Notes: generated by a model from the sequence alone, not told the origin. A DNA stretch of 64,000 bases from Opitutales bacterium (GCA_965197745.1 CBDANS010000007.1:1628306-1692305), one strand, 5' to 3'; shown: positions 42,474 through 61,353, numbered from the stretch's first letter. Program-made: numbers and translations.

Positions 42474-42511
42474 GTACCAAGGAGCGCAGTGACGACATAG
42501 CAAAACACTCA
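42474..42511 (+). repeat. Short intragenic insert, type T1 (38 nt, diverged copy)
   Basis: gtaccaaggagcgcagtgacgacatagcaaaacactca lies between ..PLRN and (C)LNQEWF. Confidence 0.7.
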
Positions 42512-42778
42512 TGCTTAAATCAAGAATGGTTCCTAAGCGTTACCGAAGGGCGTGTTGTTATTGAAGCGTGGAAGCAAAACTAAAATGCCCAATATCCTCA
42601 TAGTCGTTTAGGCTTCCTCTCTGCCAATGCTTTTGCCAAACTCTGGCACCAACTCGATCCTACAAGTGCTGGCTCCACGAGCCCTACGGCCTATCTTCGC
42701 CAGCATCTCTTAAACCAATTATAGATAACCCATCGAATGGCTCTCACTCAACTTGGGTGTAATTATGAAGTCCAATCA

Positions 42779-42985
42779 TTGGTACAAAGGATATGCGGAA
42801 AGCTTCAATAATCATTTAAGAACTGAGTGCCTTGAGCACAAGTTACTATACACCCTGACTGAATCCCACGTGGTAATCGAACAATGGCGTCATACCTACA
42901 ATCATGAACATTCCCACCGTCGTTTAGGCTTTAAAAGCCCACTAACGTTTGTCAGTTTCTTTTCCGATCCTGAAATTAGGTAATG
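42779..42985 (+). pseudogene. IS3-family transposase C-terminal fragment (third variant, uninterrupted at the T1 site)
   Basis: W YKGYAESFNNHLRTECLEHKLLYTLTESHVVIEQWRHTYNHEHSHRRLGFKSPLTF. It starts exactly at the SPW|QNG codon position, directly after the preceding IS end. Confidence 0.7.
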
Positions 42986-43837
42986 AAAGATGAATCAAGA
43001 ATACTTACTATTGATGTCGCAGACTCAATCTGTGATGCGTCGATTGCATTATCGAACCAGACAACAGATGTTAAAACAGATTCTTGGCATCATATTAAAG
43101 GTTCGGTTATATATGAAAAAATAGTAATCAGTTATCTGCGTGTTCTGCGATTTATACCCAATAGTAAATACTATAGTCCAATTGGTAAATTCAAAGTCTG
43201 GGACTTTTCATCAACAGCATCGATTACAAGAAGTATTATTGAAGCATACTTCTGTTTGTTTTACATATGCATTGAAAATGTAAGTAATAAAGAAAAAGAG
43301 AAGAGAAAGCTTCTTTGGCTATACCATGAGAAAAATGAGAGACACAAAATGCTTAAGATAGCTTTGCCCAATTCGAAATATGTTGGTAAATTATATGATA
43401 AAAAAGAACGTCTTAGAAAAAAATTAGTAACCCACACTTGGTTCCTGAAACTTAAACCAGGACGACAAGAAGAACTATTAAAAAAAGATGTAAGCAAATT
43501 GGATGGAAATATAGAGATATGCAAAAAAGCAGGAATCAATCAAAATTATTACCAACCAACCTTTAAGTTTCTATCAAATTTTGCACACACTTCACCATTT
43601 TCAATTTATCATATAGACTCAAAGTACATTACTGAAAAGAAAGCGAAGTTATTATTCGGCCACATTGCTAACATTGCATCTGGCTTCTCTGTGATTGCTC
43701 TAGAAGATTACGCTAAGCTCTTTCCAGAGCAATCCCTTGATAACTCAGAGATTAATGAATATATTAATATTTGGAGAGAAATAATGCAGTGGGAGAAGTC
43801 TGAATATTTTGATAAATCTGAGGTTGACTCTAATTGA
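42983..43837 (+). CDS. Hypothetical protein, DUF5677-like (AT-rich cargo gene)
   Basis: 284 aa, helical. Contains SITRSIIEAYFCLFYI (R-x3-E pattern shared with 38368 and 47679) and a downstream FLSNFAHTSPFS. Its ATG overlaps the stop of the preceding fragment (TAATG). Confidence 0.4.
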   Translation: MKDESRILTIDVADSICDASIALSNQTTDVKTDSWHHIKGSVIYEKIVISYLRVLRFIPNSKYYSPIGKFKVWDFSSTASITRSIIEAYFCLFYICIENVSNKEKEKRKLLWLYHEKNERHKMLKIALPNSKYVGKLYDKKERLRKKLVTHTWFLKLKPGRQEELLKKDVSKLDGNIEICKKAGINQNYYQPTFKFLSNFAHTSPFSIYHIDSKYITEKKAKLLFGHIANIASGFSVIALEDYAKLFPEQSLDNSEINEYINIWREIMQWEKSEYFDKSEVDSN

Positions 43838-44047
43838 TGAGCATGCTTGTCAATGCCTGGCCATAAAGGTATCGTGTTCGCTAAAAGCGAAGACGTGGTA
43901 CAAGTCCTAGTCGAAGCTATTGAAGAGTATGGCAGAGCCCAATGCATCCGCTCCGATAATGGTTCGCAGTTCGTAGCACAAAAAGTCACAGAAGCATTCC
44001 TCAAGAGCCAGATCGACATTATCTCCATCACCCTTGGTAGTCCTCGG
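43836..44047 (+). pseudogene. IS-B-lineage transposase internal fragment (from the DE-YTR position to GSP)
   Basis: DEHACQCLAIKV..SEDVVQVLVEAIEEYGRAQCIRSDNGSQFVAQKVTEAFLKSQIDIISITLGSP. Nucleotide homology to 48790-48990 (reverse strand). Confidence 0.7.
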
Positions 44048-44063
44048 TGGTTATGCCACTTAA

Positions 44064-44912
44064 TTATGCTACTTTAATAAATGTGAGATTCGGACCCATA
44101 TCGTAGTCACACAGTTCGAGGCACCACCCTTCAGAGCTCTGATTATATGGTTCCCTTGCTTTCATTCTTCTCTGAATAAAGGAAATATTATCCTCAGGTA
44201 TTTCGTCACAAAAGTAAACGGAGTTGATGCAATTTTCAATCTCGTAAATGTTGATGGTATGTGAATCTTCCATTGAACCTATTTGTATATTTAGTTTGTA
44301 GTAATCTCTATGTACACCAATAAAACAATATTTTGGAGTTATCGGTAGTAATACACCCTTCAGTTCGTTCTTGTTATGCTTTGACCCGAGCCAGATTGAT
44401 GGACAATCTGATGTAAGTAGTAATCCGTCTTCTGAAAATGGAATAATGGCAAAATCCCAATTTTCTTCTATATAGGCTCTAATTTCGCTGTCACTCGAAT
44501 TCGATAGTTCACTGCTGATAAGAGATTCCTTGAAGATTTGAATACGTTTAAGGTAGAATTGAAATTCCTCTTCTATCGTATTGAACTTAAATTTGAAATT
44601 TCTTGCATAGAAATCTACAGCACAGAGGAAAAAATGAAACATAGACTTCTTTGATACTACATTACCCCTCAATAAAGATGTCATACATGATCTATATTTA
44701 CTCTCTGTTACACCAAAATATTTTTCACATAGTTCAGCTCGCTTCTGAGAGTAGAAATAGTCTTTCTGGCATTGATTCCGCACTGGAACGTATTCAGCAG
44801 AATTTAAACCAACTCTCCAGATTCGGCACTTTTTTAGGTCTACACCTGGCGGTATTGCGAACTGCCTTAGGTATATAATTGGCAGGTAATGTTGTTTCTT
44901 GTATTTCGGCAA
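44064..44912 (-). CDS. DUF4238 domain protein
   Basis: The N-terminal KKQHYLPIIYLRQF matches the DUF4238 signature (HY.P..YL..F). AT-rich, 282 aa. Confidence 0.6.
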   Translation of the reverse strand: MPKYKKQHYLPIIYLRQFAIPPGVDLKKCRIWRVGLNSAEYVPVRNQCQKDYFYSQKRAELCEKYFGVTESKYRSCMTSLLRGNVVSKKSMFHFFLCAVDFYARNFKFKFNTIEEEFQFYLKRIQIFKESLISSELSNSSDSEIRAYIEENWDFAIIPFSEDGLLLTSDCPSIWLGSKHNKNELKGVLLPITPKYCFIGVHRDYYKLNIQIGSMEDSHTINIYEIENCINSVYFCDEIPEDNISFIQRRMKAREPYNQSSEGWCLELCDYDMGPNLTFIKVA

Positions 44913-45237
44913 ATGTATTTGATGTTATACTCCTAATGCGGACTCGCATGTATTAGGTGTGAGATTGATCGGACTGGTTGGACCCCGTATTTCGTACCAA
45001 TTTTTAAGTGAGAGAACTACCGGGTGTTAATGGTATTAGGATTGATGTATATGAGAGATCTTGGCGCAGTGAGGGCGTAGCCCGAACGCGGCCAGGATCT
45101 GAAAGGAATCAGACAAACTCTTGTGGGCTTTGAAAGCCTAATCGACTGTGAGGATGTTCATTGTTATAGGTCTGACGCCATTGTTCGATTAGAACTTGCG
45201 CTTCAGCCACGCTGAGCAACACTTCAGGGTTCAAACA

Positions 45238-45275
45238 TGAGCGCTTCGCTATGTCGTCACTACGTTCCTCGGTAC
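45238..45275 (-). repeat. Short intragenic insert, type T1 (38 nt)
   Basis: The gene strand reads gtaccgaggaacgtagtgacgacatagcgaagcgctca. It carries an in-frame TAG and shifts the frame. Confidence 0.85.
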
Positions 45276-45314
45276 ATCGCGTAAGCGGTTGTGAAACGAC
45301 TCGATGAAACCGTT

Positions 45315-45359
45315 TGTTATTCTCGCTTTGGCTCGTTGAGGTGTCGCTTCGCTCGGTAG
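45315..45359 (-). repeat. Short intragenic insert, type T3 (45 nt)
   Basis: The gene strand reads ctaccgagcgaagcgacacctcaacgagccaaagcgagaataaca, replacing the Gln codon of SPWQNG. It stays in frame and has no stop. Confidence 0.85.
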
Positions 45360-45437
45360 CCAGGGACTGCCTGGTTGGATATAGAGGGTTTTGATTTTCA
45401 TCGCTGTTAGCCAGGCTCTCAATTCCTTTTCAATGAA

Positions 45438-45471
45438 TGGCTTCGCATGTCGTCGCTTCGCTCCTCGGAAC
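45438..45471 (-). repeat. Short intragenic insert, type T2 (34 nt)
   Basis: The gene strand reads gttccgaggagcgaagcgacgacatgcgaagcca, between SDNGS and FIEK. Confidence 0.85.
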
Positions 45472-45597
45472 ACTGCCATTATCACTGTGGATATAGCTGG
45501 GAGCTCCCTCCTTTTCAATGGCCTCGCTAAGCACAGAGAGGACATCGGTTGAGGTGAGCTGTCGAGCTACCCGGATGCGTAAACATTTACGCGTATA

Positions 45598-45642
45598 TGT
45601 CTTCGCTTCGCTTGAGTGTCGTCGCTTTCAGCTCCTCGGTAC
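45598..45642 (-). repeat. Short intragenic insert, type T4 (45 nt)
   Basis: The gene strand reads gtaccgaggagctgaaagcgacgacactcaagcgaagcgaagaca, replacing the Glu codon of LIDEYTR. It contains an in-frame TGA. Confidence 0.85.
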
Positions 45643-46070
45643 ATCGATCAAGGTCATCATCTTTAGCATACCGCCATTGTCTGTACGATCATGGACAAAG
45701 TCCCAGGACCAGACGTGATTGCGACCGGTTGCTTTAGTAGGGAGCCCAGTAGAGATCCCCTGACGGTGTCTACGCTTTTTCGGGGGCTTTACCTGTAAGC
45801 CCGAAGAACGTCGCACTGCCTGTACAAATTTCCTGCTTGCCGCCCAACCTTCCTTCACCAGCAGGGCACGAATGCGCCGGTAACCGTAACGGGGATGTTC
45901 CCAGGACAAGGTCAAAATCCGCTCGGCCAATTGCTGAGCCTTCTTACTGGCCTGCTTGGGTCGGTAGCTGTACGTTGACCAACTGAGGCTGAGATAAGCA
46001 CAAGCCCTCCGAAACGAGCACAGCCCCTTCTCAGCCGCATCTTTTACTGCTCGCTTCTTCTGCTTTGGGC

Positions 46071-46337
46071 TCACCATTTTTTTGAGAGCGTTTCCTCCAA
46101 CACCCGAAGCTTGAGCATTTGATCAGCGAGCATCTTCTTCAGCTCCGTGTTCTCCTTTTCCAGTTCTTTAAATCGCTTCGCATCAGCCAGCTCCAAGTTG
46201 CCATACTTTTTGCGCCAGCGATAGAAGGTCTGTTCACTTAGGTTGTTGCCGTGGCAGACTTCCTGCACGGTTTTGCCCGTATCGGGCTGCCGGAGTATTG
46301 CTATGATCTGTTCTGTTGTATATCTTTTTCTTTTCAT
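46071..46337 (-). CDS. IS-A copy A orfA (HTH + leucine zipper)
   Basis: MKRKRYTTEQIIAILRQ...LSEQTFYRWRKKYG...KRFKELEKENTELKKMLADQMLKLRVLEETLSKKW. Start taken at the Met at 46337. Confidence 0.8.
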   Translation of the reverse strand: MKRKRYTTEQIIAILRQPDTGKTVQEVCHGNNLSEQTFYRWRKKYGNLELADAKRFKELEKENTELKKMLADQMLKLRVLEETLSKKW

Positions 46338-46402
46338 TGAGGTTATCTGTTTATCCCGATAACCTCTCTCTGTTAATGATACCATTTTTTGGGGTCACTC
46401 CA

Positions 46403-46991
46403 CAACCATTTCCCACCTTATTGACGTAGCCCATATGCGGGGCAAAGGGGGCCACGTCATGAGACGTGTAGGTCAACTCAAGAACGGACACTAGGACAAT
46501 CTCCCGAGCTCACTTCGAGCCGAAGCGGACAGCCGCGCAGAGTTTCGGCGACAAAACGTGGAGTTGCTCGACGATGAACCAGTTGAGGTGTTGGCCTTCT
46601 TAAGTCTTCCCACAAGGGATCACTGTGGAGGGAGCACCAGCACCCCTTTTGTGCGGCGCGCCGCCGCGCCGGGCGAGGAGGGGACACGCGAGCCGCAGCC
46701 TCGCTTCGATTTGTCGCAGCGGACGCGGGCAACTCCTTTTGTCCTGCGTCTTATGTGGCGTTTCGGCGAAGTCCCACACCACAACGGCGGGGGCTCTGCC
46801 CTCTGAGGGAAAAGCGTTGTGGTTGTCGAAATCATGTCCACCCCTCCCCGTCTGAAAGGGGACACCCATCTGACGGCATATGCGTGACCCCCGAAGACGG
46901 AAATCGTCGATCATTCCTGCCCCGGACAAGGCAGCCATGGCGTTCAACAGCGGTCCGGTGACTTCCGTTTTCCTACCCGCTGGGGGCACGT
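46403..46991. other. G+C-rich stretch without a credible ORF; possibly a decayed IS256/Mutator-type transposase 3' end
   Basis: All six frames give Arg/Pro/Gly-rich junk. The plus-frame peptide VELLDDEPVEVLAFLSLPTRDH resembles the ..ELLEE..EDVLAY..FP.EHW region of IS256-family transposases. Several long GC stems are present (for example ACCACAACG...CGTTGTGGT). Confidence 0.25.
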
Positions 46992-47516
46992 TTAGCCTCC
47001 TTGATCTTCTTGGTAATTTGCGAGGGAATCTTCGTACGCTTCGCGCCTCGTGTCCCACGGCACATCTGTGAACCCGTCGATGATGTTGAGGGAAAGTTGG
47101 GCTTCCGCCATGTACCCGCGACGTTCATTCTGGTTCGTCAGGATCAACTGAACCAAGCGAACGCGGTCTGGATAGCGAATCCACCCCTCAACCTCCCGGC
47201 GCAGCCAGTCAAGCCAGAGCCTTGGGGTCTCGTCAAGCGGTTCCTTTCGCATGAACGGCAGCGCCAACTGCCGATAGTCATGCCGGAAGCGCCAGACTGC
47301 AGCCAAAAGGTCGTGAGCATGCTGCAGTGTTCTGTGATCGAAACTATCAATCCTGCCCCATTCTCGGTGATCGGTATCGTCCAGAACAATTCGGGCAAAC
47401 TCCGCGTACAGGTTACATCGCGAAACAATGATCCCTTGTGCTTGTGGATACACGTCGTGTTGTTTCCCGGCCACTTCCATGTCCACGTCACCTTCAAAAA
47501 AGGACCCGACAATCAC
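46992..47516 (-). CDS. Hypothetical protein (174 aa), G+C-rich
   Basis: Balanced amino-acid composition, unlike the overlapping 290-aa plus-strand ORF. No family recognised. Contains RTLQHAH (weak R-x(4-6)-H resemblance only). Confidence 0.45.
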   Translation of the reverse strand: MIVGSFFEGDVDMEVAGKQHDVYPQAQGIIVSRCNLYAEFARIVLDDTDHREWGRIDSFDHRTLQHAHDLLAAVWRFRHDYRQLALPFMRKEPLDETPRLWLDWLRREVEGWIRYPDRVRLVQLILTNQNERRGYMAEAQLSLNIIDGFTDVPWDTRREAYEDSLANYQEDQGG

Positions 47517-47678
47517 TTGGTCTCTCCAGCAAATTTCGGCCGGTGGGTGCTATACCGCAAGCACTGCGACCGCCAATTGCGTTCCGCAATCGCCTCACCG
47601 GCGCGGAAGTGTCGGTCGATTACCATCTCTGCACACCCATATTACACAGTTGTTCGCGCGGCAGCTCTCTGTATAGGC

Positions 47679-48398
47679 TTATCGGAGCCCAACCTCCACC
47701 AACGTCCTCAGTCGTTGCTTCTCCTTGTGAATACGCTGTTCCTTTTCGCTTTCTCGACGGCCTTCGTTAAGTGTATGAACATGGCCAGCGCATTGCGCAC
47801 CAATTTCCAGCAATGCAATCAGATCGTTTCTTATCTGTTCATTATTGTGAATAACTGCTCCATATTCGTTTGACCATCCCATCCACACACTTCTTGCAGC
47901 CATATGAACCGAATCATTCCACCAATCCTTCTTTCCTCTCATCCAGCTCACGGTTGTTCTCATGATATTTTGCTTGTTCAGATCATTCCACATTCTATCT
48001 AGGCTTGGAGACTTCCTCTTACTTAACAGGGTCTTCCATGCCCTTGCCGCATCTCCAGAACTTCTAAACAAGAAATTTTCCGCATATTCTTCTTTCGCGA
48101 CGAATTCGAGCCAAATCCCTCTAGTGTAACTCTCAAACATCGGCCTCTTAGTCAATCCGAATAACAGTCCATCTTGCCGATTCTTCAAACTGGATCCTAG
48201 TAATTGTGCACCCAGGCTAGCTATTCTTATCGCTGCGTTGTATTGCAATATGGCTCCCATACCTTTCCAACCAATTGTTTCGACATATACTGATGGACGC
48301 TTCTTCGTACGCTCAACCCCGGCCTCCCAAGCCGAAAGATTACGAGAAACTTCACCTACTAATTCTTCCAGTCCCGGCTTAAGAGATTTTTCTTGCAT
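47679..48398 (-). CDS. Hypothetical protein, DUF5677-like
   Basis: 239 aa, helical. Contains LTKRPMFESYTRGIWLEFV (R-x3-E pattern) and a downstream WWNDSVHMAARS. Its start lies 24 bp from the IS-B right end. Confidence 0.45.
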   Translation of the reverse strand: MQEKSLKPGLEELVGEVSRNLSAWEAGVERTKKRPSVYVETIGWKGMGAILQYNAAIRIASLGAQLLGSSLKNRQDGLLFGLTKRPMFESYTRGIWLEFVAKEEYAENFLFRSSGDAARAWKTLLSKRKSPSLDRMWNDLNKQNIMRTTVSWMRGKKDWWNDSVHMAARSVWMGWSNEYGAVIHNNEQIRNDLIALLEIGAQCAGHVHTLNEGRRESEKEQRIHKEKQRLRTLVEVGLR

Positions 48399-48687
48399 GC
48401 TTGCTCTTCTCCAATCGAGTATGATTAGACCCCATAATTACTACCAAGTTAAGTGAGAGCCATTCCGTGGGTTATCTGTTGTTGGTTTAGCAGATGCTGG
48501 CGGAGGGAGGCCGGAGGCCGAGTGGAGCCAGCACCTGTTGGATTGAGTTGCTGCCAGAGTTTGGCAAAAGCGTTGGAGAGAGAAAGCCTAAACGACTATG
48601 AGGGTGATGGGTATTGTATTTTTGCTTCCCCGCATGGATGACAACACGCGCTTCGGTAACGCTTAGAAACCACTCTTGGTTTAAGCA

Positions 48688-48725
48688 TGAGTGCTTCGCT
48701 ATGTCGTCACTACGTTCCTCGGTAC
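48688..48725 (-). repeat. Short intragenic insert, type T1 (38 nt), in the IS-B lineage
   Basis: The gene strand reads gtaccgaggaacgtagtgacgacatagcgaagcactca, between HNRLRD and CLNQEWF. It matches the IS-A copies at 37 of 38 positions. Confidence 0.85.
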
Positions 48726-49653
48726 GTCACGCAGTCGATTGTGAAAGGATTCAACATGGCCGTTCTGCCAAGGACTGCCAGGGTCGATGTAGATAATGTC
48801 GATCTGGCGCTTGAGGAGTGCTTCTCTGACTTTTTGTGCTACGAACTCCGAACCGTTATCGGAGCGGATGCATTGGGGTCTGCCATACTCTTCAATAGCT
48901 TCGACTAAGACCTTGCACCACGTCTTCGCTTTTGAGCGAACGAGATACCTTTATGGCCAGGCATTGACGGGTATACTGATCGACACGGTGAGAATGCGGA
49001 AAGGGCGGCCGTTGACCAGCCGATCGCTCATAAAGTCCATCGACCAGCGTTCCTGGGCAGCTGAAGCCGCGGGCAGTGAGACCCGCCTTTGCGCGGCACG
49101 CTTCTTACGTTTCTTCGTGCGCACTTCCAGCCCTTCGGCCTTGTAGATCCGATAGACGCGTTTCTTTCCTACCGACCAGCCCTCCCGCTTTAATAACACC
49201 GTGATTCGCCTATACCCGTAGCGCACACGCGCGGCGGCGAGGTCTCGTATGCGCACAATCAGCGCGCGTTCGTCCCTCATCACCGGCTGATAGTTATAAC
49301 TCGACCAATACAACTGCATCAGCCTGTACGCCCGGCGTTTGCTAACTTCATAAGCTTCCACTAACCACTCAGCAATCACCTTCTTGCCCACTGGCTTTAC
49401 AACTTTTTTGAGATAACTTCCTGCACCATGTGCTTGTCCAGGCTCAGATCAGCGACCAGCTTCTTCAAACTGGCGTTCTCTTCGTCGAGTTGCTTCAGCC
49501 GTCTTAATTCACTGATTCCCATGCCCGTGTATTTACCCTTCCAACGGTGGTAGGTCTGTTCGCTCACCCCTAACTCCCGGCACCCTTCGGCGATCCTTCG
49601 ACCACCTTCTACCTGCCTTAGGGCATAGATGATTTGTTCTTTATTATAGCGTT

Positions 49654-49681
49654 TGTCAGGCCTTCTCGGCTGCGCCTCGTT
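49654..49681 (-). repeat. Possible additional short insert (T5, about 28 nt) in the orfA 5' end
   Basis: Absent from the homologous position of copy 2 (53550-53583). The gene strand reads aaacgaggcgcagccgagaaggcctgac. It shares only CGAGG/CCGAG/GAC elements with T1-T4. Confidence 0.4.
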
Positions 49682-49784
49682 TTCCTTTGCTTTTCATGGA
49701 TCGTTCTTTCTCCTATTTTTATTAGCTTTTCTACCCACGCCAGACTAAATCTTTCCTGGTCCAGTTTTACGGGGACAGGTCAAT

Positions 49785-52358: not shown

Positions 52359-52456
52359 CTTTTCCCCCTATTGTTCCCACTCTCCATCGATATCTCAACG
52401 CCCTAAAAAGGCGCCAGAGGAACGCACGGTTCAAAGATGGTACCTTTTGCAGGGTG

Positions 52457-53639
52457 TGATATGCTCCCATTTACTAGACCAAGCTCAGTGTTAGGATTTG
52501 CTGGTTGGAGGGGGGCGGTTATCAGTTTGCATATGGCTTGCTGGGCGTATTCGGCCGGAGGTCGCCGGAGGCCGATAGCCCAGCGAGCTGCGTAGTCTTT
52601 GAGTATTATAATCGAGGCGGTATGGTGTAAGCTTTTCCCGTGCCTCAGTCAGGGAAAAGAAGATCTCTGGGTTAAGGAGTTCGTCGCGTAGCTTGCCATT
52701 GAAGAACTCAATGTAAGCGTTCTCTGGTCGGTCTACCTGAGAACTCGGGCCCGCTATCGACGGTGATGGCCTTGGGTAAACCACCGGTGTTTACCGATGC
52801 TCTCTCCAGCACCTCGATGACTTTGCCGGCGTCGATGGACTGATCGGCGTAGAGCACCGGGCAGAGCGGTCATAGCGATCCACTACTGTAAGCACCCGGA
52901 AACACCGCCCATCCGCCAACTTACCCTCCATGAAGTCCATGCTCCTGTGTTGGCGTGAGGCTCGGGCTTGAGCCAACTGCACCTGTGGCAGGGAAGCCCA
53001 CTTCTTACGTTTTTGGATGCGCACTTCCAGCCCCCTCGGCCTTGTAGGTGACGTAGACACGCTTTGTGGCCCACCCGGCCAGCATCTCGCTTTAGCAAAC
53101 ACTGTCGGACGCCGATAACCGTAACGCATGCGCAATGCTGCCAGATCGCCGATACGCACGGACAGAGCTCGATCGTCCGGTTTTGGCTTGGGCCAACACA
53201 TAAAGCTTGACCCGTTAAGTTGCAGCAGCCTGAACCCGCAACGGTAGCTGATCTCGAAGACCTCAGCGGCCTTACCCACCAGCTGCACCTTGCGTACAGG
53301 CTTCAGAGCTATATTGAGACGATCTCCTGCAGGATATGTTTGTCCAGGTTCAGGTCGACCACCAGCTTACGTAAGCTGTTGTTCTCGTCTTCCGGCTTCT
53401 TCAACCGGGGTAGCTCGCTTACGCCTATGCCGCATACTGCTTCTTCCAGCGGTAGTAGGTCTGCTCCGAGACTCCTGGCTCGCGACACACATCGGCGATC
53501 CTGCGACCGCTGTCTGCTTGCCGCAAAGCGTAGATGATTTGTTCTTCTTTATAGTCTTTATAGCGTTTACCTTTGCTTTTCATAATGGACCGGGTTCCAT
53601 TCTATGAACCCCGATCCAACCCAATGGGATCAACCTGCA
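52457..53639 (-). mobile_element. IS-B lineage, copy 2 (degenerate)
   Basis: The right end TGATATGCTCCCATTTACTAGACCAAGCTCAGTG is homologous to the copy 1 right end. Transposase pieces: MKSKGKRYKDYKEEQIIYALR, MRYGYRRPTV, FRVLTVVDRYDR, AYIEFFNGKLRDELLNPEIFFSLTEAREKL. Confidence 0.7.
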
Positions 53640-53640
53640 T

Positions 53641-53950
53641 ACCCGGCGTTTGCTTACCTCATAAGCTTCCATTATCCACTTAGCTATCGACTTTTTGCGC
53701 AAAGGATTAATTTGCTGATTCCTAAACCTGTATATTTACACTTCCAACGGGGGTAAAGGCCTTGTTCGCACAACTCGGACCTTCGGTATCCCTTCGTCCG
53801 CCTTCTGCCTGCTTTATGAAATAGATCATTTGCTCTTTATGATAACGCATGCCTTTTCTACTGATGGGTGGTTTTTATCCTGTCTTTTATCAGGTTTTCC
53901 TCCCATGAAAGACTAAATCTTTGCTCGTCCAGTTTAATGGGGTCAGGTCA
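53641..53950 (-). mobile_element. IS-B lineage, 5' fragment with internal deletion (copy 3)
   Basis: Ends in GACTAAATCTTTGCTCGTCCAGTTTAATGGGGTCAGGTCA (left inverted repeat, homologous to 49741-49782). Contains orfA-5' and orfB-5' pieces only. Confidence 0.6.
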
Positions 53951-53986
53951 CAGTCCCTCTATTTTATTAAGCTTACTTAACTGATT

Positions 53987-54470
53987 CATCCCCGAGGGAC
54001 TATTCGCCAGAAACGATCTGCTTCCTCAGTAGTTACCAGGTCGAGATAGTAATTACGGATCACGGATTCAGAGTTGCTTGCCTGAGGTGCAGCGTCTCCT
54101 ACCGAGCGGAAGGACCCCACCGTCATCGAAATATAGGTATGCCGTAGGGCATTAGGTGGAGTTTGCGCTATTTACGGACATTAGCCTACATGTCGCGGAA
54201 TCTCCTTGTTGGTATGGTGAGGTAGCTGCCAGGAGGATACTTCTCCAACCAGAGGCTACGGGTGGGCTGGATTTTAACGGATCGCTTATCCTTTACTTTG
54301 GAGACATCCGGTTCGATAAGGATAACCCCGCTATCCCTATGGATGTGTTTAGGTTTGAGTTTGCTCATTTTACCGTGTTTCCAGTCAAGTCTGTAAACAA
54401 AGTTTTTCTTAATCTACTTCATAGGGAAATCTGGAGGTGCCATTACAGGTTCTGGTGCGATTAAACTTGT
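53987..54470 (-). pseudogene. Second tyrosine integrase, C-terminal half only, with in-frame stops and a frameshift
   Basis: The minus strand reads ..RLDWKHGKMSKLKPKHIHRDSGVILIEPDVSKVKDKRSVKI.. then *, then ..PPNALRHTYISMTVGSFRSVGDAAPQASNSESVIRNYYLDLVTTEEADRFWRIVPRG*. It is collinear with the 33.5-33.9 kb part of the first integrase. Confidence 0.65.
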
Positions 54471-54533
54471 CTCCACCGGGCGCATAAATTTATTGTTTTG
54501 CCTCACAAGGGTCTGTTAATCGAGATTATTAAA

Positions 54534-55052
54534 TTCACTCAAAAATTATTGACCGATTCCTGGCTGAACCTTACCAAAAAAGTATTCCTGCCCATTCCTG
54601 CCAAACATTTTGAGGCAAGGTCAGGAAATTAGAGGAAAATATAAATTATTATTGTGCCGTTATTTAAGTATAACTAATTGTTAATAAGCAGTTTATAAGG
54701 CATTATTGAGTCCCGTTCATAGTCGGTTTCATCGAGTCGTTTCACAACCGCTTACGCGATGTACCGAGGAACGTAGTGACGACATAGCGAAGCGCTCATG
54801 TTTGAACCCTGAAGTGTTGCTCAGCGTGGCTGAAGCGCAAGTTCTAATCGAACAATGGCGTCAGACCTATAACAATGAACATCCCCACCGTCGATCAGGC
54901 TTTCAAAGCCCACAAGAGTTTGTCACATTCCTTTCAGATCTTGGCCGCGTTCGGGCTACGCCCTCACTTCGCCAAGATCTCTCATATACATCAATCCTAA
55001 AACCATTAACACCCGGTAGCTCTCTCACTTAATAATTGGTACGAAAAACGGG
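54534..55052 (+). repeat. Duplicated composite segment S1 (about 200 bp AT-rich sequence fused to the last ~320 bp of IS-A)
   Basis: Homologous to 61098-61814. The junction ...cccgttcatagtc|ggtttcatcgag falls one codon after the T3 position. It ends in the IS-A right inverted repeat ...cggggtccaatca. Confidence 0.8.
54761..54798 (+). repeat. Short intragenic insert, type T1 (38 nt)
   Basis: gtaccgaggaacgtagtgacgacatagcgaagcgctca lies between NRLRD and CLNPEVLL. Confidence 0.85.
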
Positions 55053-55254
55053 GTCCAATCAGTTTTTTAGAATATAAATTTAAAAAAGCGGTAAGGATCA
55101 GCTGAAGCTCAGCCACTGCTGAGCTATTGCGATTAAGCACCGTGTTTCACCTAACTTATATCCTATGTATACTCTGCGCTCTCTGCGTCTCCGCGGGAAA
55201 ACATTTGCTGAACTGAATGTTGTATATTTAGATGTAACCCTATTAATCTAAGGC

Positions 55255-56853
55255 ATGATGGATCAACCGTTTCGACTGATATGGGAGGCTGAATGGAACG
55301 ACATCGCGTGCGTGGATTACCCGCTAACGCCGGAGCAATGGCTGGGCGAATGCATACGCCCGCTAGAGGGGACGCAGGTAGACTGCCTGCTCTACAACCT
55401 GTGCTCGTCGGACGCATACTGCTGTGACCTGGAGAGCGGCGAGATCCTGGGCGATGAGTTCGAGCAATTCCCGGATGCATGGGTTTGGCGCTATCGAGAG
55501 AATACCAAGAAGCTGATCGAGGCGAACGCGAACCCGCCAAAGCTTGCGTGTGAGTACGGGCGCCGCATGGGATTGAAGCTGATACCGGTCGTTCGCATGA
55601 ATGATCCACACGACCAGGCTTACAAGTACGAGGTCAGCCGGTTCAAAATGGCCAACCTGCATCTGCTCTTGGGTTACACCGGACCGGATTGGCAGCCGCC
55701 TTGGGGGACTTGGTGGCGAGCGCACCCCAATCCCGAGAGTATGGACGCCACCAATTGGGGACTGTTTGATTTTGCGCACAAAGAGGTCCGCGACCACAAA
55801 ATGGCCATCATCGAGGAGTTCATCACCCGATGGGACAACGACGGCATCGCGCTTGATTTCGAACGCGATCCTCGCTACTTCAAAGAGTTCGGCAAGGCGG
55901 AAAACGCCGTGCTTATCACGGACATAGTGCGGCAAACGCGCGAGCTTCTGGACCGCGTGAGCTGCGAACGTAGTCGACCCATGTACCTGCATGTGCGTGT
56001 CGTGGCGGATATCGACACGTGCTGGCAACGAGGACTGGACGTGCACACGTGGGTGAAAGAGGGATTGGTCGACGTCGTTGTGCCTGGCGCCGGATACATG
56101 TTATTCGATATGGACCTTGGTCCGTGGTTGGAACTGGTCGAAGGGCATGACTGCTGGATATTCCCCTGCGTGAACCACTGGAGAAAGACGGAAGTGACCC
56201 GCGCCTGGGCCAAGTTGATGTATCAACGGGGAGCGCATGGGCTGCAACTGTTCAACTTCGGGCACTTGCTCTACGGACACGGTATAGATACGCCACCGCA
56301 ATCCGAACGGACAGGGACGGTCTGGTACGACGATCTGCACCCGGAGTATTACCGTGTGCTGCACGAGATCCACGATCCGGGCGTGATTGCCTTTCTCAAC
56401 TGCGATTACGATCTCGATTCACATCCGCGCGCACCAAACCAGGGAGCTCATTCGGGACAGAACCACAGGACCTACCGGGGTATCGACGCGATCGTGCTCC
56501 CTGTGGAGCTGTCGGTTGGGTCACACGTCATCCCGTTCGGGATTGCCGATGATCTGGAAGCGGCGCGGCAACGGGCGCTGTCGCCGAGAGTCACCTTGCA
56601 CTTGCAGGTACACAACTTCACGCGGCCCGATGAGTATAAGGTCTCAGTTAACGGAAGCTTATTGCCGGGAGATGCTCGGAGCACTCGGGCGCAGTTTATC
56701 ATGGACAATTTTACCCGAATGACTTATCTCCTGCCGCCCGATGTCTTGAGGCTCGGTCAGAATGAATTGAAGATCGAAGTGGAACGCCTCAACCCGGCAA
56801 TTTGCGTGACTCCGCGGCTGGATCACGTCGAGATTCTCGTGCAATATGCCTGA
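55255..56853 (+). CDS. Hypothetical protein, possibly a glycoside-hydrolase-like TIM-barrel protein
   Basis: 532-aa G+C-rich ORF. The antisense ORFs look like shadows. Weak resemblance to GHL10-type proteins (alternating strand/helix pattern, GIALDFERD); function not established. Confidence 0.35.
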   Translation: MMDQPFRLIWEAEWNDIACVDYPLTPEQWLGECIRPLEGTQVDCLLYNLCSSDAYCCDLESGEILGDEFEQFPDAWVWRYRENTKKLIEANANPPKLACEYGRRMGLKLIPVVRMNDPHDQAYKYEVSRFKMANLHLLLGYTGPDWQPPWGTWWRAHPNPESMDATNWGLFDFAHKEVRDHKMAIIEEFITRWDNDGIALDFERDPRYFKEFGKAENAVLITDIVRQTRELLDRVSCERSRPMYLHVRVVADIDTCWQRGLDVHTWVKEGLVDVVVPGAGYMLFDMDLGPWLELVEGHDCWIFPCVNHWRKTEVTRAWAKLMYQRGAHGLQLFNFGHLLYGHGIDTPPQSERTGTVWYDDLHPEYYRVLHEIHDPGVIAFLNCDYDLDSHPRAPNQGAHSGQNHRTYRGIDAIVLPVELSVGSHVIPFGIADDLEAARQRALSPRVTLHLQVHNFTRPDEYKVSVNGSLLPGDARSTRAQFIMDNFTRMTYLLPPDVLRLGQNELKIEVERLNPAICVTPRLDHVEILVQYA

Positions 56854-56960
56854 GCGCACCCGTTTAGTGTGCTACATGCACAATTCAGAACAGATCAGAA
56901 TATTACTTCCGCGCTCTGGGTGTCAATCAGGCCGTCTCAATTGCGGATTGATTCCATTTG

Positions 56961-57240
56961 TCATCGCGAAGGAAGCGTAGCTGACTGTGGCTACCGAGCG
57001 TGAAACGCGACATCTTCTATTCCAGGGGGCTGTCAATACGTGACCGACATCCTCCTGGAGTGGAAGATGTCGCTGAGCTCGGTAGCTTCGTCGCATTGCT
57101 CCTCGCAATGACAAGAGGATAATTACGAAGATAAGGATTATATTCGATAACCGTTAGACACAATCCGTAATCCGTACCGAGAGCTAAGCGCGACATCCCT
57201 CATTCCGCATTCCGTACCGAGGGCGAAGACCGACATCCAT
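56961..57240. repeat. Intergenic cluster of at least 6 copies (both orientations) of the [G/C]TACCGAG...GCGACAT short-repeat family
   Basis: Units: 56991-57017 ctaccgagcgtgaaacgcgacatcttc (+); 57061-57085 (-), which reads ctaccgagctcagcgacatcttcca; 57086-57113 (-); 57174-57198 gtaccgagagctaagcgcgacatcc (+); 57214-57238 gtaccgagggcgaagaccgacatcc (+). Partial units occur at 56961-56985 and 57034-57055. The cluster lies between two convergent genes. Confidence 0.75.
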
Positions 57241-57247
57241 AATCGTC

Positions 57248-57940
57248 TCACTCGATCGTTACCTCATCGACAGCAATGGTGATCTCATCACCCTCTTCAT
57301 TAACGAAGGTTGCATTGATATTTTGAGTCGGTTGAGGAGTGTTGTCAGATTTAAAATTGTTCTGCGTAATCAAGGTATCAAATTCTCGCGTCGTCGATCC
57401 GCTCTCCGCGACTACGATCGAAGCTCCATTTGTCTGTGCCAGGTCTCCTCCAGTGATCCGCAACCCGGGGTTGCTGGCCGGCACCGTGAAGGAACCTTCT
57501 CCAAACAGCAAATGTGGTACTGCATCGTCACTGGCATCGATGTCACCTACGGTTAAGCGTACTGCTATCGGTACTCCGCGTGCATCGACGCCTACTTTGC
57601 CGGTGTCTCCACTGAAGACAGTATTCGACAACTGAATCCCTCCCATCCCCGTGGAGTTGATCACTTCCACCAAGGTGACGTCGGCTTGCGCGTCATAAAC
57701 CTGTCCCTCGGGGAAGAGCGCCTGGTTCACCGCGTTGATCGATCCCACCGTAAAGATACTGAAGAAGGTACTGGAGTCAGCTCCATCGATGACTACGCTC
57801 GGCTTACCGGTCACGTACTCGACGGCCTGGTTGTAGCGTAGGGGTGGAGCCGGAGGCAGGAAGGTGGCCGGGTCCAAGATTACAGTAAAGGTCCCTGCGC
57901 CCGAGAACTCTACCTGCACAATGTCCTCATTTTCGTCCAT
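57248..57940 (-). CDS. Hypothetical beta-rich protein, probably the C-terminal part of a larger surface protein (5' end cut by IS-A copy B)
   Basis: The reading frame stays open upstream of the first Met into the IS terminus 15 bp away. Thr/Gly/Val-rich and G+C-rich. Confidence 0.5.
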   Translation of the reverse strand: MDENEDIVQVEFSGAGTFTVILDPATFLPPAPPLRYNQAVEYVTGKPSVVIDGADSSTFFSIFTVGSINAVNQALFPEGQVYDAQADVTLVEVINSTGMGGIQLSNTVFSGDTGKVGVDARGVPIAVRLTVGDIDASDDAVPHLLFGEGSFTVPASNPGLRITGGDLAQTNGASIVVAESGSTTREFDTLITQNNFKSDNTPQPTQNINATFVNEEGDEITIAVDEVTIE

Positions 57941-58217
57941 GAAGGAGACCCGTGTGATCGGACCCCGTTATTCGTACCAATTATTAAGTGAGAGAGTTAC
58001 CGGGTGTTAATGGTTTTAGGATTGATGTATATGAGAGATCCTGGCGCAGTGAGGGCGTAGCCCGAACGCGGCCAGGATCGGAAAGGAATCTGACAAACTC
58101 TTGTGGGCTTTTAAAGCCTAAACGACTGTGGGGATGTTCATTGTTATAGGTCTGACGCCATTGTTCGATTAGAACTTGCGCTTCAGCCACGCTGAGCAAC
58201 ACATCAGGGTTCAAACA

Positions 58218-58255
58218 TGAGCGCTTCGCTATGTCGTCACTACGTTCCTCGGTAC
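58218..58255 (-). repeat. Short intragenic insert, type T1
   Basis: Identical to the copy at 45238-45275. Confidence 0.85.
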
Positions 58256-58294
58256 ATCGCGTAAGCGGTTGTGAAACGACTCGATGAAACCGTT

Positions 58295-58339
58295 TGTTAT
58301 TCTCGCTTTGGCTCGTTGAGGTGTCGCTTCGCTCGGTAG
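58295..58339 (-). repeat. Short intragenic insert, type T3
   Basis: Same sequence and position as 45315-45359. Confidence 0.85.
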
Positions 58340-58417
58340 CCAGGGACTACCCGGATCGATATATATCGCCTTGATGTTTTTTTCACGCAACCACCGCTGT
58401 ACTTGATGAGCGATAAA

Positions 58418-58451
58418 TGGCTTCGCATGTCGTCGCTTTGCTCCTCGGAAC
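58418..58451 (-). repeat. Short intragenic insert, type T2
   Basis: The gene strand reads gttccgaggagcaaagcgacgacatgcgaagcca. Confidence 0.85.
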
Positions 58452-58577
58452 ACTGCCATTATCACTGCGGATATAGCTGGGAGCTCCCTCCTTTTCAATG
58501 GCCTCGCTAAGCACAGAGAGGACATCCGATGAGGTGAGTTGACGAGCTACCCGGATATCCAGACATTCACGCGTATA

Positions 58578-58622
58578 TGGCTTCGCTTCGCTTGAGTGTC
58601 GTCGCTTTCAGCTCCTCGGTAC
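58578..58622 (-). repeat. Short intragenic insert, type T4
   Basis: Same as 45598-45642 except for one base at its 3' end (..gaagcca versus ..gaagaca). Confidence 0.85.
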
Positions 58623-59050
58623 ATCGATCAGAGTCATCATCTTTAATGGACCGCCATTGTCTGTGCGATCATGGACAAAGTCCCAGGACCAAAGGTGATT
58701 GCGACCGGTTGCTTTAGGAGGCGACCCTGTAGAGACTCCTTGACGGTGTCTGCGCTTTTTTGGTGGCTTTACCTGTAAGCCCGAAGAACGTCGCACTGCC
58801 TGTACAAATTTCCTGCTCGCCGCCCAGCCTTCCTTCACCAGCAAGGCACGGATGCGCCGGTAACCGTAGCGGGGATGTTCCCAGGACAGGGTTACAATCC
58901 GCTCGGCCAACCGCTGAGCTTTCTTACTGGTCTGCCTGGGCCGGTAGCTGTACGTTGACCAACTGAGGCTGAGATAAGCACAAGCCCTCTAAAACGAGCA
59001 CAGCCCTCTCTCAGCCGCATCTTTTACTGCTCGCTTCTTCTGCTTGGGGC

Positions 59051-59317
59051 TCACCATTTTTTTGAGAGCGTTTCCTCCAACACCCGAAGCTTGAGCATTT
59101 GATCAGCGAGCATCTTCTTCAGCTCCGTATTCTCCTTTTCCAGCTCTTTAAATCGCTTCGCATCAGCCAGCTCCAAGGTGCCATACTTTTTGCCCCAGCG
59201 ATAGAAGGTCTGTTCACTTAGGTTGTTGCCGCGGCAGACTTCCTGCACGGTTTTGCCCGTATCGGGCTGCCGGAGTATTGCTATGATCTGTTCTGTTGTA
59301 TATCCTTTTCTTTTCAT
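59051..59317 (-). CDS. IS-A copy B orfA
   Basis: MKRKGYTTEQIIAILRQ.. with the leucine zipper intact. Confidence 0.8.
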   Translation of the reverse strand: MKRKGYTTEQIIAILRQPDTGKTVQEVCRGNNLSEQTFYRWGKKYGTLELADAKRFKELEKENTELKKMLADQMLKLRVLEETLSKKW

Positions 59318-59384
59318 TGAGGTTATCGGGTTATCCCCATAACCTCTCTCTGTTAATGATACCATTTTTGGGGGTCACTCCATT

Positions 59385-59924
59385 TTGCCTCGGGAGTTCA
59401 TCGAAACGTTTATCGAGGCCTCCTCAAAGTATGCGGAAGTCACCGACGAATTAAACAACTTCATCGATCGGCTCAACCAGGTAAAATCAGCTGAGACCGA
59501 TAACCTGACTGAGGTCGAGATTGATTCCATGTTTTATTTTGACCCGAAATTTGTGGACGAGGTGGACGAGGCAGGACTCGAACTGAAAAAGCTATATCTA
59601 AAAGAATTTGCAGTAGATATGCACTACCAATCGACCAATGTTTTCTGGATTGGAGAAGGGACTGAAAAAGAACTTTATCCTGAAGGAGATGATACAAAAC
59701 CTGTCTTTGGGGGAAACGCGATCTATTACAGAAGTAAGGACAATTTACCTTCATGGATTCCAGACGATAAAGTAAATCTTGAGTTGCCTCCCCCATCGAA
59801 TTTTAATCCCCGTTTGCATACCGACCCGGATACAGAACCCTTTATCTGGGTTCCTGCTGGAACATGGGGATTCTTTTGTATTGATCGACAATGGAAGATA
59901 GCGATCATCCGTTCTGGAACATAA
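59385..59924 (+). CDS. Hypothetical protein; the listed TTG start is 3 bp from the IS end, so it is probably a 5'-truncated gene
   Basis: 179-aa ORF with acidic composition. No family recognised. Confidence 0.35.
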   Translation: MPREFIETFIEASSKYAEVTDELNNFIDRLNQVKSAETDNLTEVEIDSMFYFDPKFVDEVDEAGLELKKLYLKEFAVDMHYQSTNVFWIGEGTEKELYPEGDDTKPVFGGNAIYYRSKDNLPSWIPDDKVNLELPPPSNFNPRLHTDPDTEPFIWVPAGTWGFFCIDRQWKIAIIRSGT

Positions 59925-60132
59925 TTCGATCGACTGGGATGAAACAGTTTAGCCGAGTAAACGAGCGAAGACAGCCATTGGCAAAGGAAGAGAAGTCAAA
60001 GGATGATGGGATTAATCATGCCTAATCCTCGTGCTTCAGTATTGAGTCGGCATTCCCCAACCTTACAAAGTACATCCGTCATTTTGAATGGTTGACACTG
60101 TCGCAATTTCCAGTCACCTCGACACTTGAATA

Positions 60133-60172
60133 GTGATCGGACCCCATTATTCGCACCAGTTTAAGTAAGGGA
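60133..60172 (+). mobile_element. Solo IS-A-type terminal inverted repeat
   Basis: TGATCGGACCCCATTATTCGCACCAGTTTAAGTAAGGGAG matches the right ends at 57955 and 44966. No transposase sequence follows it. Confidence 0.6.
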
Positions 60173-60368
60173 GCAAGGGAAATCAAAGATGGCCTAAGCA
60201 CATTGTCGACCTGTTACCGGATTCGTTCGAGGAGTCGGAGTAATGACTGAGCTGAACTAAGTGAAGCACCAACCCATAACCCTCAAAGTCATTACGATTT
60301 ACGAACTGCCTTTCGACTGCGCCAGCCAGAGACAACGAATAACTCCATGGTGATGTACCCACGAGCCG

Positions 60369-60833
60369 TTACCGGGCGGGGGCATCCACAGCCAAATCGG
60401 TGGTGATGAGGGCGAAAATGCCCTCTATATCGCGCGCCGGGACAGAGCGGGTGATCATCCAAATCTCACCGCCACCCGCATCAAAGTAAGGGGCTGTCCA
60501 GACGCCCGTATTCGCTGCCAATGGCGCTGTAACCCAGACCTGAGTCTCAATGTTGTAGGTGGGTGTGGCGAGGTCGTGGGTGGCGTAGCCGTCGGCGGTG
60601 CGATAGACATAGGGGCAAGTGGTGACCACACCAGCATGATCGAGCAGCGCAGCGGCACTGCCGTGGAACGCGGGGTTGGCCTCCAAGTAGGCCCGTAAGC
60701 GCTCCGTATACGCGGCTGGATTGGCTGGTCGTTCCACCTCCAACTCTGCCACCAAGGTGTCGAGGGCGGCAACCACCGCAGTCTTCAAGCCCTCCTGAGT
60801 GGGCGCGCTAGGACTACAGCCTTGGGCAGTCAA
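60369..60833 (-). CDS. Small Cache/PDC-type sensor-domain protein, lipoprotein-like; the N-terminus is unclear (possible frameshift)
   Basis: VWTAPYFDAGGGEIWMITRSVPA....GIFALITTDL is a Cache_1-like signature. Upstream in frame it reads RAAALSLLLLTFLTAQGC, but the only ATG is in another frame. G+C-rich. Confidence 0.5.
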   Translation of the reverse strand: MTAQGCSPSAPTQEGLKTAVVAALDTLVAELEVERPANPAAYTERLRAYLEANPAFHGSAAALLDHAGVVTTCPYVYRTADGYATHDLATPTYNIETQVWVTAPLAANTGVWTAPYFDAGGGEIWMITRSVPARDIEGIFALITTDLAVDAPAR

Positions 60834-60959
60834 GAAGGTAAGCAGCAGCAGAGACAGGGCCGCTGCTCGAACATGAGGTGATGGGTTTGGAACCTAGGGG
60901 CGATGTATTGCCATGGAGCGTAAACGAGACGGGTTGGTTTAGGGACTGATATACACAAC

Positions 60960-61081
60960 TGTACTTGTTGCCTTGTTGCAACTTGATCTAACAGACACTG
61001 TTTTATCAAATCGCAACTCTTCCAGAGAATAACATTGATTGTTTTCTTCTCAACTTCCAATCAAATAATAAGTTATCGTCG
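60960..61081 (-). repeat. MITE-like element, right-half copy in inverted orientation
   Basis: tgtacttgttgccttgttgcaacttgatctaacagacactgttttatcaaatcgcaactcttccagagaataacattgattgttttcttctcaacttcc... is the reverse complement of 61468-61580 with a few substitutions. Confidence 0.7.
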
Positions 61082-61315
61082 TGGAGTGCCCCAAAAATCC
61101 ACTCGAAAATTCTTGGCCGATTCCTGGTCGAATATCATCAAAAAATATGATTCCTGCCAAACATTTAGAGGCAAGGTCAGGAAGTTAGAGGAAAATATAA
61201 ATTATTATTGAATCGTTATTTACGTGTAACTAATTGTTATTAAGCAGCTTAAAAATCATTATTGAGTCCCGTTCATAGTCGGTACATCGAGTCGTTCCAC
61301 AACCTCTCACCCGAT

Positions 61316-61353
61316 GTACCTAGGAACGTAGTGACGACATAGCGAAGCGCTCA
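61316..61353 (+). repeat. Short intragenic insert, type T1
   Basis: gtacctaggaacgtagtgacgacatagcgaagcgctca. Confidence 0.85.

Follow-up and report, generated by a model that had tools for sequence, protein, structure and literature searches.

Short structured inserts and rearrangement endpoints recur at four codons of IS3-family transposase genes in an Opitutales bacterium

The DNA analyzed here, a stretch of 64,000 nucleotides from an Opitutales bacterium (GCA_965197745.1 CBDANS010000007.1:1628306-1692305) that is referred to in full as the window, has as its right-hand 25 kb a graveyard of insertion sequences (IS) of the IS3 family. Our subject is a set of short inserts that interrupt the transposase genes of these elements at four codons, termed T1 to T4, together with the rearrangements that end at or near the same codons, which we read in the window and also in four independent alleles of other assemblies. 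A tblastn map of the window places the host elements IS-A, IS-B and IS-C in the IS3 family, each having an orfA with a helix-turn-helix followed by an orfB with a DDE rve domain; Pfam searches of intact relatives return PF00665/PF13276/PF13683 and PF01527, and terminal inverted repeats of the form 5'-TG...CA-3' are present in IS-A (TGGAGTGACCCC...GGGGTCCAATCA) and likewise in IS-B (TGACCTGTCCCC...GGGGTCTAATCA). The repaired IS-A orfB, used as a protein query, retrieved intact relatives of 306-307 amino acids at 86-89% identity, and the local protein identity to IS-A is 44-52% for IS-C and about 42% for IS-B.

Two IS-A copies on the minus strand, wA1 (44973-46402) and wA2 (57955-59382), carry all four inserts together. 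In wA1 these are T4 at 45598-45641, T2 at 45438-45470, T3 at 45315-45358 and T1 at 45238-45274, and in wA2 they are T4 at 58578-58621, T2 at 58418-58450, T3 at 58295-58338 and T1 at 58218-58254. The inserts were defined by aligning both copies to intact IS-A DNA (L001/L003) and to the partly hit alleles L006 and L007, with the intact IS-A relatives (P0002, equal to L001-L005) as the reference frame. At T4, in the motif LID-E-YTR, the intact GATG-AG-TAT has become GATG + 44 nt + TAT, with 2 nt replaced and a net gain of 42 nt; at T2, in SDNGS-E-F, AGTG-AG-TTT has become AGTG + 33 nt + TTT (net +31); at T3, in SPW-Q-NG before the catalytic glutamate, TGGC-AA-AAC has become TGGC + 44 nt + AAC (net +42); and at T1, in RLRD-E-CLN, GATG-AG-TGT has become GATG + 37 nt + TGT (net +35). 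Each insert starts with T(A/T)CCGAG and ends in CA, and across their range of 17-44 nt the inserts replace the last two bases (AR) of a GAG, CAG or CAA codon, after its G or C.

The inserts at T1-T4 are variants of one sequence, TACCGAGG-(GCGAAGC / ACGTAGT / GCTGAAAGC)-GACGACA-...GCGAAGC...-CA. The constant end of the repeat consists of GT(T/A)CCGAGG, a C-GNA-G mini-hairpin and GACGACAT, after which comes a variable segment; the other end is of variable length and terminates in CA. Short forms, seen at T2 in L006 (17 nt plus a 4-nt AGTG duplication, in frame; P0014, 313 amino acids) and at T3 in L127 (17 nt plus a CCTGGC duplication), retain the constant end, and the long form is GT(T/A)CCGAGGAGCGAAGCGACGACAT followed by GACCGR-hairpin-YCGGACCA. 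Both hairpins covary across 18 sequences, with 80% of cells paired versus at most 32% in slid controls, double changes in 24 cells, and a value that none of 500 shuffles matches. The 5' box is invariant, the C-GNA-G mini-hairpin is 100% paired with GC<->AU covariation, and the second hairpin is conserved too; the short IS inserts taken alone show no structure beyond the mini-hairpins, the structure being evident only in the long forms. As DNA structures, mini-hairpins of the type GCGNAGC are known for exceptional stability (PMC13037366). The short unit thus combines a head and a hairpin that are both conserved, a feature that the inserts share with REP/REPIN-like repeats. The core pattern matches nine times in the window against 0.01 expected, always within IS3 copies, and a covariance model gives 11 significant matches in the window, 11 of 11 in IS3 copies.

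Other identities for the inserts were considered and rejected. A self-splicing intron or known RNA family was discarded for want of a match to any curated RNA family: Rfam has no match in the window, and among 19 related loci it finds only tRNAs. A miniature inverted-repeat transposable element (MITE) does not describe them, as there are no terminal inverted repeats, the long forms replace 2 nt without duplication, and the short forms have 4- or 6-nt duplications. Translational-bypass inserts, such as the gap of phage T4 gene 60 and the 'byp' elements of Magnusiomyces mitochondria, are 27-55 nt long and lie inside open reading frames (ORFs), and the inserts studied here resemble them in having lengths that are not multiples of 3 and stops inside. 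However, insert-free active relatives coexist with the disrupted copies, which decay further and carry additional stops and deletions, and the flanking codons differ (GAT..TAT, AGT..TTT, TGG..AAC, GAT..TGT), giving no match between take-off and landing sites.

The same insert subtype occupies the same codon in IS lineages that are only 42-52% identical, and it is missing from intact relatives of IS-A and IS-C. The IS-C copy (38931-40248, plus strand) has the T2 insert (TTCCGAGGAGCGAAGCGACGACATGCAAAGCCA, 39824-39856, plus strand; 39.2 bits with the covariance model) as its sole disruption at a T site and is 94% identical in amino-acid sequence to the insert-free intact IS-C of L002 and L004; the T2 insert of IS-C is also found in L208 and L209b, with 1-2 mismatches to the IS-A version (one in the window copy). 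A nearly complete IS-B (48421-49782, minus strand) carries T1 (48688-48724) as its only T-site insert, 36/37 identical to that of IS-A in far more diverged flanks. A degenerate chimera whose 5' part is IS-F and whose 3' part is IS-B (41735-42779, plus strand; recognized from tblastn, sequence and repeats) has in its IS-B part a T1 insert (42475-42511, plus strand; pattern scans and covariance model) and the 3' part only of a T3 insert (42405-42436, plus strand). T3 of one subtype is shared by IS-A, the IS-B part of this chimera and the IS-C-like copies on L209, where it occurs twice. The IS-A alleles of other samples show many states: no insert, T1 only (P0141), T2 only, T3 only (P0015, in frame with 321 amino acids, and P0021), T2+T3, an ORF first disrupted at T4 (P0138), T3+T1 (P0035) and T4+T2+T1 (L006b). 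Insert-bearing IS-A copies also lie on the NCBI contigs of P0066/P0127/P0133/P0152, P0142 and P0141. This variety of combinations indicates that the four codons were hit repeatedly, and the comparison of sequences supports the view that the codons of IS-A, IS-B and IS-C received the same insert subtype independently.

Related insertions also occur in orfA. The IS-B orfA has at about 49628-49655 an extra 23-nt insertion, AGGCGCAGCCGAGAAGGCCTGAC, with a 5-nt AAACG duplication; a reverse-oriented unit, ATGTCGCTTATGCTCAGTA, lies at an A-run frameshift site at the end of the IS-C-like orfA of L209b (about position 2700 of L209); and an insert-like filler, TACCGAGTCGCATAACGACGACATC, marks an internal orfA deletion in the IS-F part of the chimera (41801-41825, plus strand; regex scans and sequence). 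These cases suggest that the family has more targets than the four orfB sites. Frameshifts at or near T4 in L208 and a 1-nt loss at T3 in P0024 were examined as possible excision footprints and rejected: they are homopolymer indels in 2-3x long-read assemblies, and we therefore treat them as probable sequencing errors.

A first-pass annotation of this DNA had proposed that breakpoints of IS rearrangements fall on the codons that host the inserts, and had named five junctions in its favor. The IS-B right end of the chimera (...AATCA, 84% identical to 48421-48576) does abut a transposase fragment, TTGGTACAAAGG, at 42779/42780 (placed by that annotation at 42778/42779); this IS-D fragment (42780-42972, plus strand) begins at the W codon of SPW, 4 nt 5' of the T3 point, and runs to about codon 278. 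An IS-B fragment (43836-44047, plus strand) was said to extend from the T4 codon to T3, and its right edge is indeed at the T3 point (44044-44047), with 91% identity to IS-B up to ..AGTCCTCGG and none beyond, whereas its left edge is fuzzy and cannot be assigned to a codon: the nucleotide identity is high only from about 43849 onward, similarity at the protein level (TLIDE) reaches back to 43824, and the T4 point (43839/43840) falls between these limits, the edge lying within about 4 codons of T4 but not at it. The segment 42780-44047 comprises the piece from T3 to codon 278, a DUF5677 gene and the piece from near T4 to T3; with T3 at both ends, it looks from its sequence as if two cuts had released it. 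The deletion near 42408 reported to end inside a T3 insert was likewise recovered, with its junction at 42405-42413 (ACTCCTCAA), where IS-B GCACTCCTCAA is joined to ACACCTCAA inside the insert through an 8/9 match.

The two remaining junctions also exist, with corrections. S1 (54724-55063, plus strand; T1 insert 54762-54798) is an IS-A 3' fragment fused to native intergenic DNA, which has an uninterrupted counterpart in another assembly (L127 1630-1845), and S2 (61279-61815, plus strand; T1 insert 61317-61353) is its diverged duplicate with the same junction. The fusion of AT-rich DNA just after T3 is real, joined through a 5-nt CGGTT microhomology (54724-54728 in S1) that lies 2-7 nt 3' of the T3 insert, but it does not represent two independent events: about 190 nt of upstream AT-rich DNA are common to both, which makes it one event that was later duplicated. 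This pair is the only case to which the idea that all the coincidences descend from one or two duplicated ancestral junctions applies. The MITE copy at 42242-42373 (plus strand) does sit between D and N of IRSD/NG in the chimera, although its distance from the T2 point is 10 nt on the 5' side and not two codons; a 7-nt deletion that follows it removes the T2 codon. To the same MITE family belong a copy of 218 nt within S2 (61373-61590), which shows a duplication of 9 bp, GGCTGAAGC, and a 109-nt partial inverted copy upstream of S2 (60972-61080), the copy in the IS-B part of the chimera being a 132-nt internally deleted one.

Further junctions extend this pattern. IS-E (about 52491-53585, minus strand), a relative of IS-B, has an internal deletion (junction about 52723/52724, with a CAG microhomology) that begins some 20 nt 3' of T2 and ends at the T3 Q codon. 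Within wA1, an IS-C-like patch (45359-45437, minus strand) begins in the T2 insert that IS-A and IS-C share and stops about 12 nt short of the T3 point; it is seen in the comparison of 39799-39935 with 45359-45495, which are 85% identical. Among the alleles of other assemblies, the deletion in L126 (P0112) spans precisely the interval between the T2 and T1 points and leaves GGCAGTG/AGTGTTTG, without an insert and with the wild-type AG kept; in L127 (P0041) IS-C-like sequence takes over about 25 nt 3' of its truncated T3 insert; and L128 (P0022) has an ATCGAT deletion with its end 1-7 nt before T4. Several of these junctions (CGGTT, ATCGAT, CAG, TGAGT, CTCAA) are plain microhomology joins of the kind seen in ordinary IS decay, but the concentration of endpoints at four codons is not predicted by such decay.

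The inserts might themselves act as portable homology, near-identical copies common to diverged IS families recombining with one another or with coding sequence to give deletions and mosaics. In line with this, an 8/9 match within a T3 insert marks the end of the 42405-42413 deletion, the switch from IS-A to IS-C in L127 comes with a truncated T3 insert, and the wA1 patch begins in a T2 insert common to both families. Such recombination requires a hybrid insert at the junction, however, and there is none at 42779/42780, at 44044-44047, in S1, in the IS-E deletion or in L126, the last of which retains the wild-type AG; moreover, where the wA1 patch has its right edge, the IS-C copies examined in the window, L002 and L004 are free of inserts. 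Since most T-site junctions lack a hybrid insert, this process accounts for the three in-insert junctions only, and as a general explanation we consider it unlikely. The suggestion of the first-pass annotation that the inserts drive decay as portable homology thus holds for a minority of junctions, while most are without an insert remnant.

The concentration of endpoints at the T points was assessed with a binomial test on 21 endpoints outside inserts (14 in the window and 7 external), three additional endpoints inside inserts being kept apart. For the four sites together, 8/21 endpoints lie within +-7 nt (p=3e-5) and 6/21 within +-4 nt (p=1e-4); within +-7 nt, T3 alone has 4/21 (p=3e-4), the window endpoints 5/14 (p=1.4e-3) and the external alleles 3/7 (p=0.008), all of these being p values that show the scale of the effect and not its exact size, the list being small and compiled by hand. 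Independent events therefore recur at the same positions beyond chance, as in a recombination or insertion hotspot, and T3 dominates among them. An effect of coincidence and detection bias, in which a few events were duplicated and similarity searches start and stop at conserved motifs, would find some backing in the common origin of S1 and S2, in the fuzzy left edge of 43836-44047, in the position of the T sites within the most conserved motifs and in the hand-made list. It is nevertheless very improbable, as the key junctions are resolved at the nucleotide level by drops from 84-96% identity to none, independent alleles of other samples repeat the pattern, and the test is significant for the external set alone.

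Based on these data, the reading that we favor, with a probability of roughly 0.5, is that the four codons are targeted by a process of breakage and insertion, which places in them members of a tiny dispersed repeat with a defined structure. The data show that the sites recur, that the events are independent, that endpoints are enriched and that the repeat is structured; the common cause of inserts and junctions would be a nick or double-strand break at these codons. The target motif would be N-G^AR-T, present as a GAG, CAG or CAA codon in the most conserved transposase motifs, and these points would be broken repeatedly by whatever installs the repeat; points broken again and again would become the ends of microhomology deletions, inter-family conversion patches and truncated fragments, even where no insert is present. 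A resident insert would add slight extra homology as a secondary effect. Junctions around T3 scatter over about 8 nt, which fits processed breaks better than a precise recombinase. The combination of a constant end, a variably truncated other end and a variable duplication or deletion of the target would be compatible with target-primed copying or one-ended rolling-circle transfer, neither of which has, to our knowledge, been described for a bacterial element this small. A recurrent break or insertion hotspot fits the observations best, and the coincidence of endpoints with the sites is more than chance, especially at T3; the insertion-hotspot or fragile-site interpretation offered by the first-pass annotation likewise gains support from the recurrent subtypes, the insert combinations and the external endpoints in L126, L127 and L128.

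We acknowledge that several points weigh against this reading. No candidate gene for a nuclease, reverse transcriptase, HUH/RAYT or Y1 transposase was found among the 20 window ORFs screened with Pfam. The sequence G^AGT is too common to provide specificity, with 10 GAGT on the plus strand of IS-A and only 3 of them used, and targeting of hairpin loops was rejected because DNA folds of +-20/+-30 nt around T1-T4 put no insertion point in a loop. Site-specific insert subtypes are not predicted by a single generic donor, though they could instead have been spread by conversion. A number of junctions are away from the T sites, among them the IS-F/IS-B join of the chimera (about 42216/42219), the left ends of three deletions, the right end of the IS-D fragment, the MITE in S2 (14 codons after T1) and both ends of the P0017 deletion; in addition, two entries of the small, hand-compiled endpoint list are ambiguous. 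Simpler target rules were also tried and rejected: the 5-mer TGAGT fits T4, T2 and T1 of IS-A and fails for IS-C (GGAGT), IS-B (CGAGT) and T3, and an IS91-like GTTC/CTTG or IS200/IS605-like tetranucleotide target is inconsistent with the left flanks CGAT, CAGT, CTGG, TGAC and ATCG.

The order of events might be reversed, with breaks arising first and the short repeats being filler captured during repair; the breaks would then come from transposase mis-cleavage at a pseudo-end near T3 (..GTCCCTGGCA), from slippage among three direct TGAGT repeats at T4, T2 and T1, or from a host nuclease. Of the four TGAGT on the plus strand of IS-A, three coincide with T4, T2 and T1, T3 ends in CA as an IS3 end does, L126 and L128 are microhomology deletions, and the insert-like sequence at the orfA deletion junction 41801-41825 would be an instance of such filler. 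Capture during repair would not, however, lead one to expect one subtype at a given codon in different families, or clean boundaries with exactly AR replaced every time; the T3 junctions are not at CA, and the IS-C and IS-B sites read GGAGT and CGAGT rather than TGAGT. We regard this order of events as improbable.

The repeat is also found outside IS3 elements. A loose core pattern searched in public genomes gave mostly chance matches in high-GC genomes, with about 12 informative loci among the matches listed, and scans of public genomes and metagenomes revealed non-IS copies in contigs of Opitutales, Puniceicoccaceae, Coraliomargaritaceae and Pelagicoccus; OZ252288 likewise has members of the repeat family in non-IS positions. 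Within the window, a cluster at 56980-57250, between two genes without a Pfam match and without any IS, contains at least 4 units of 22-25 nt (STACCGAG-minihairpin-CGACAT) in direct and inverted orientation; the covariance model match is borderline there, and the cluster shows that in this genome the repeat family also exists apart from IS elements. The long form lies about 100 nt downstream of tRNA genes, adjoining a duplicated tRNA 3' fragment, in L088, L095 and L169, and L144 was also listed among loci with a long form near a tRNA. The tRNA 3' fragment beside the repeat starts in the middle of the T-loop, at the center of TTCG^AA, in agreement with the G^AR rule of the transposase genes. 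Units of 110-170 nt stand in tandem beside tRNA fragments in L202, L083 and L179, and the repeat sits inside the T-loop of pseudo-tRNA-Ser ends in L083 and L149. These repeats may reflect integration at T-loops or insertion into att remnants. An integrase att site or a primer-binding site of retroviral type does not readily account for the tRNA fragments, as the one in L088 has no CCA and the whole unit measures no more than about 100-170 nt. Furthermore, L157/L205 carry a T2-like element at an E/F position of an unrelated transposase, ISNCY/IS5-like by an NCBIfam match (E=6e-42) that falls short of the curated cutoff.

A more specific proposal, which we hold as tentative and rather doubtful, is that the inserts are a hyperparasitic micro-element of 17 to about 70 nt, moved by a putative nicking enzyme that cuts G^AR and so makes fragile sites. 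Its targets would be a few multicopy sequences of high conservation, namely the Glu/Gln codons of catalytic-core motifs in IS3 and ISNCY/IS5-like transposases as well as TTCG^AA of tRNA T-loops, and it would inactivate insertion sequences and turn its target codons into chromosomal fragile sites.

The closest known kinds of repeat, by analogy, appear to be REP/REPIN elements and the small dispersed repeats (SDRs) of cyanobacteria. REP and REPIN sequences, mobilized by RAYT proteins, are short, hairpin-bearing, high-copy dispersed repeats that are extragenic (Bertels & Rainey 2011, PMC3116915). The present repeat resembles them in its size of about 20-40 nt, its conserved head and hairpin, and its occurrence as single units, tandems and inverted pairs in intergenic DNA, as at 56980-57250; it differs in that the inserts lie within transposase coding sequence at defined codons and are not palindromic overall, and in that no RAYT gene was seen among the 20 screened ORFs. 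Certain IS elements, including IS1397 and ISKpn1, target REP sequences (Tobes & Pareja 2006, PMC1525189). That system shares a specific relationship between IS3-family elements and a short structured repeat, but there the IS inserts into the repeat, whereas here the repeat enters the IS. The SDRs of heterocystous cyanobacteria, which Elhai et al. are said to have described in 2008, are reportedly mobile repeats of 21-27 nt with small hairpins that insert into mobile elements and genes, and the enzyme that mobilizes them is said to be unknown. The likeness is that of very small hairpin repeats in other mobile elements, although the sequence is unrelated and the host phylum here is Verrucomicrobiota, Opitutales-like; we know of no report of same-codon recurrence across IS families, or of an association with rearrangement endpoints, for SDRs. 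Neither this repeat nor insertion at specific codons of transposase genes is described in the literature that was searched. The inserts are best described as a micro-repeat of the REP/SDR-like kind that would target transposase genes at the level of codons, which is unusual.

Several other features of the region were recorded. Near the 3' end of IS-A and IS-C lies a 31-nt block, GGCyCCrTTCGGGCTaCGCCCTCAyTkCGCC, with a GGGC-TAC-GCCC hairpin (40130-40160, 45063-45093, 54943-54973, 61696-61726 and about 3600-3640 of L209, with a 68% match at 42671-42701); it is 81-87% identical between families in much more diverged flanks and is inverted in the IS-C/IS-A chimera L209b. Breaks or frameshifts occur at this block, at codons of about 278-285, in the IS-D end at 42972, the solo fragment of L001, P0016, P0017, P0021 and P0149-152, and a fifth hotspot or small element may be present here. 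A DUF5677 gene and a DUF4238 gene, together an AT-rich pair (35-37% GC), lie between IS fragments (42983-43837, plus strand, and 44064-44912, minus strand), a second DUF5677 gene (38368-38961, plus strand) adjoins IS-C, and a DUF6988-like gene (47679-48398, minus strand) stands beside IS-B; these genes look like horizontally acquired cargo trapped among IS copies. A 459-amino-acid ORF just after IS-C (40233-41612) has no Pfam match. An AT-rich island at 31255-35500 contains a SET-domain gene (31255-31767), a gene of the endonuclease/exonuclease/phosphatase family (31849-32604), an integrase-like gene (32777-33925) and about 12 tandem 10-nt units of TAGGTCTAGT (34153-34276). In L001 (1451-5877), an intact IS-A lies between N6_Mtase-domain genes of a type I/IIG-like restriction-modification locus, with MmeI_Mtase/N6_Mtase upstream and N6_Mtase/Eco57I downstream.

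These observations carry a practical rule for annotation: many 'frameshifted' IS3 transposases in Opitutales-like Verrucomicrobiota are genes with 33-44-nt inserts at four predictable codons. The idea of codon-level cutting can be tested in cultured relatives with the repeat, for instance Pelagicoccus mobilis KCTC 13126. If the four codons are indeed cut sites, they would represent a natural process that disables the transposase genes of several IS families and speeds the decay of IS copies through deletions, inter-family chimeras and solo fragments. Such a process would bear on how IS-rich genomes restrain their insertion sequences and on how the smallest bacterial repeats, of the REP- and SDR-like kinds, move.

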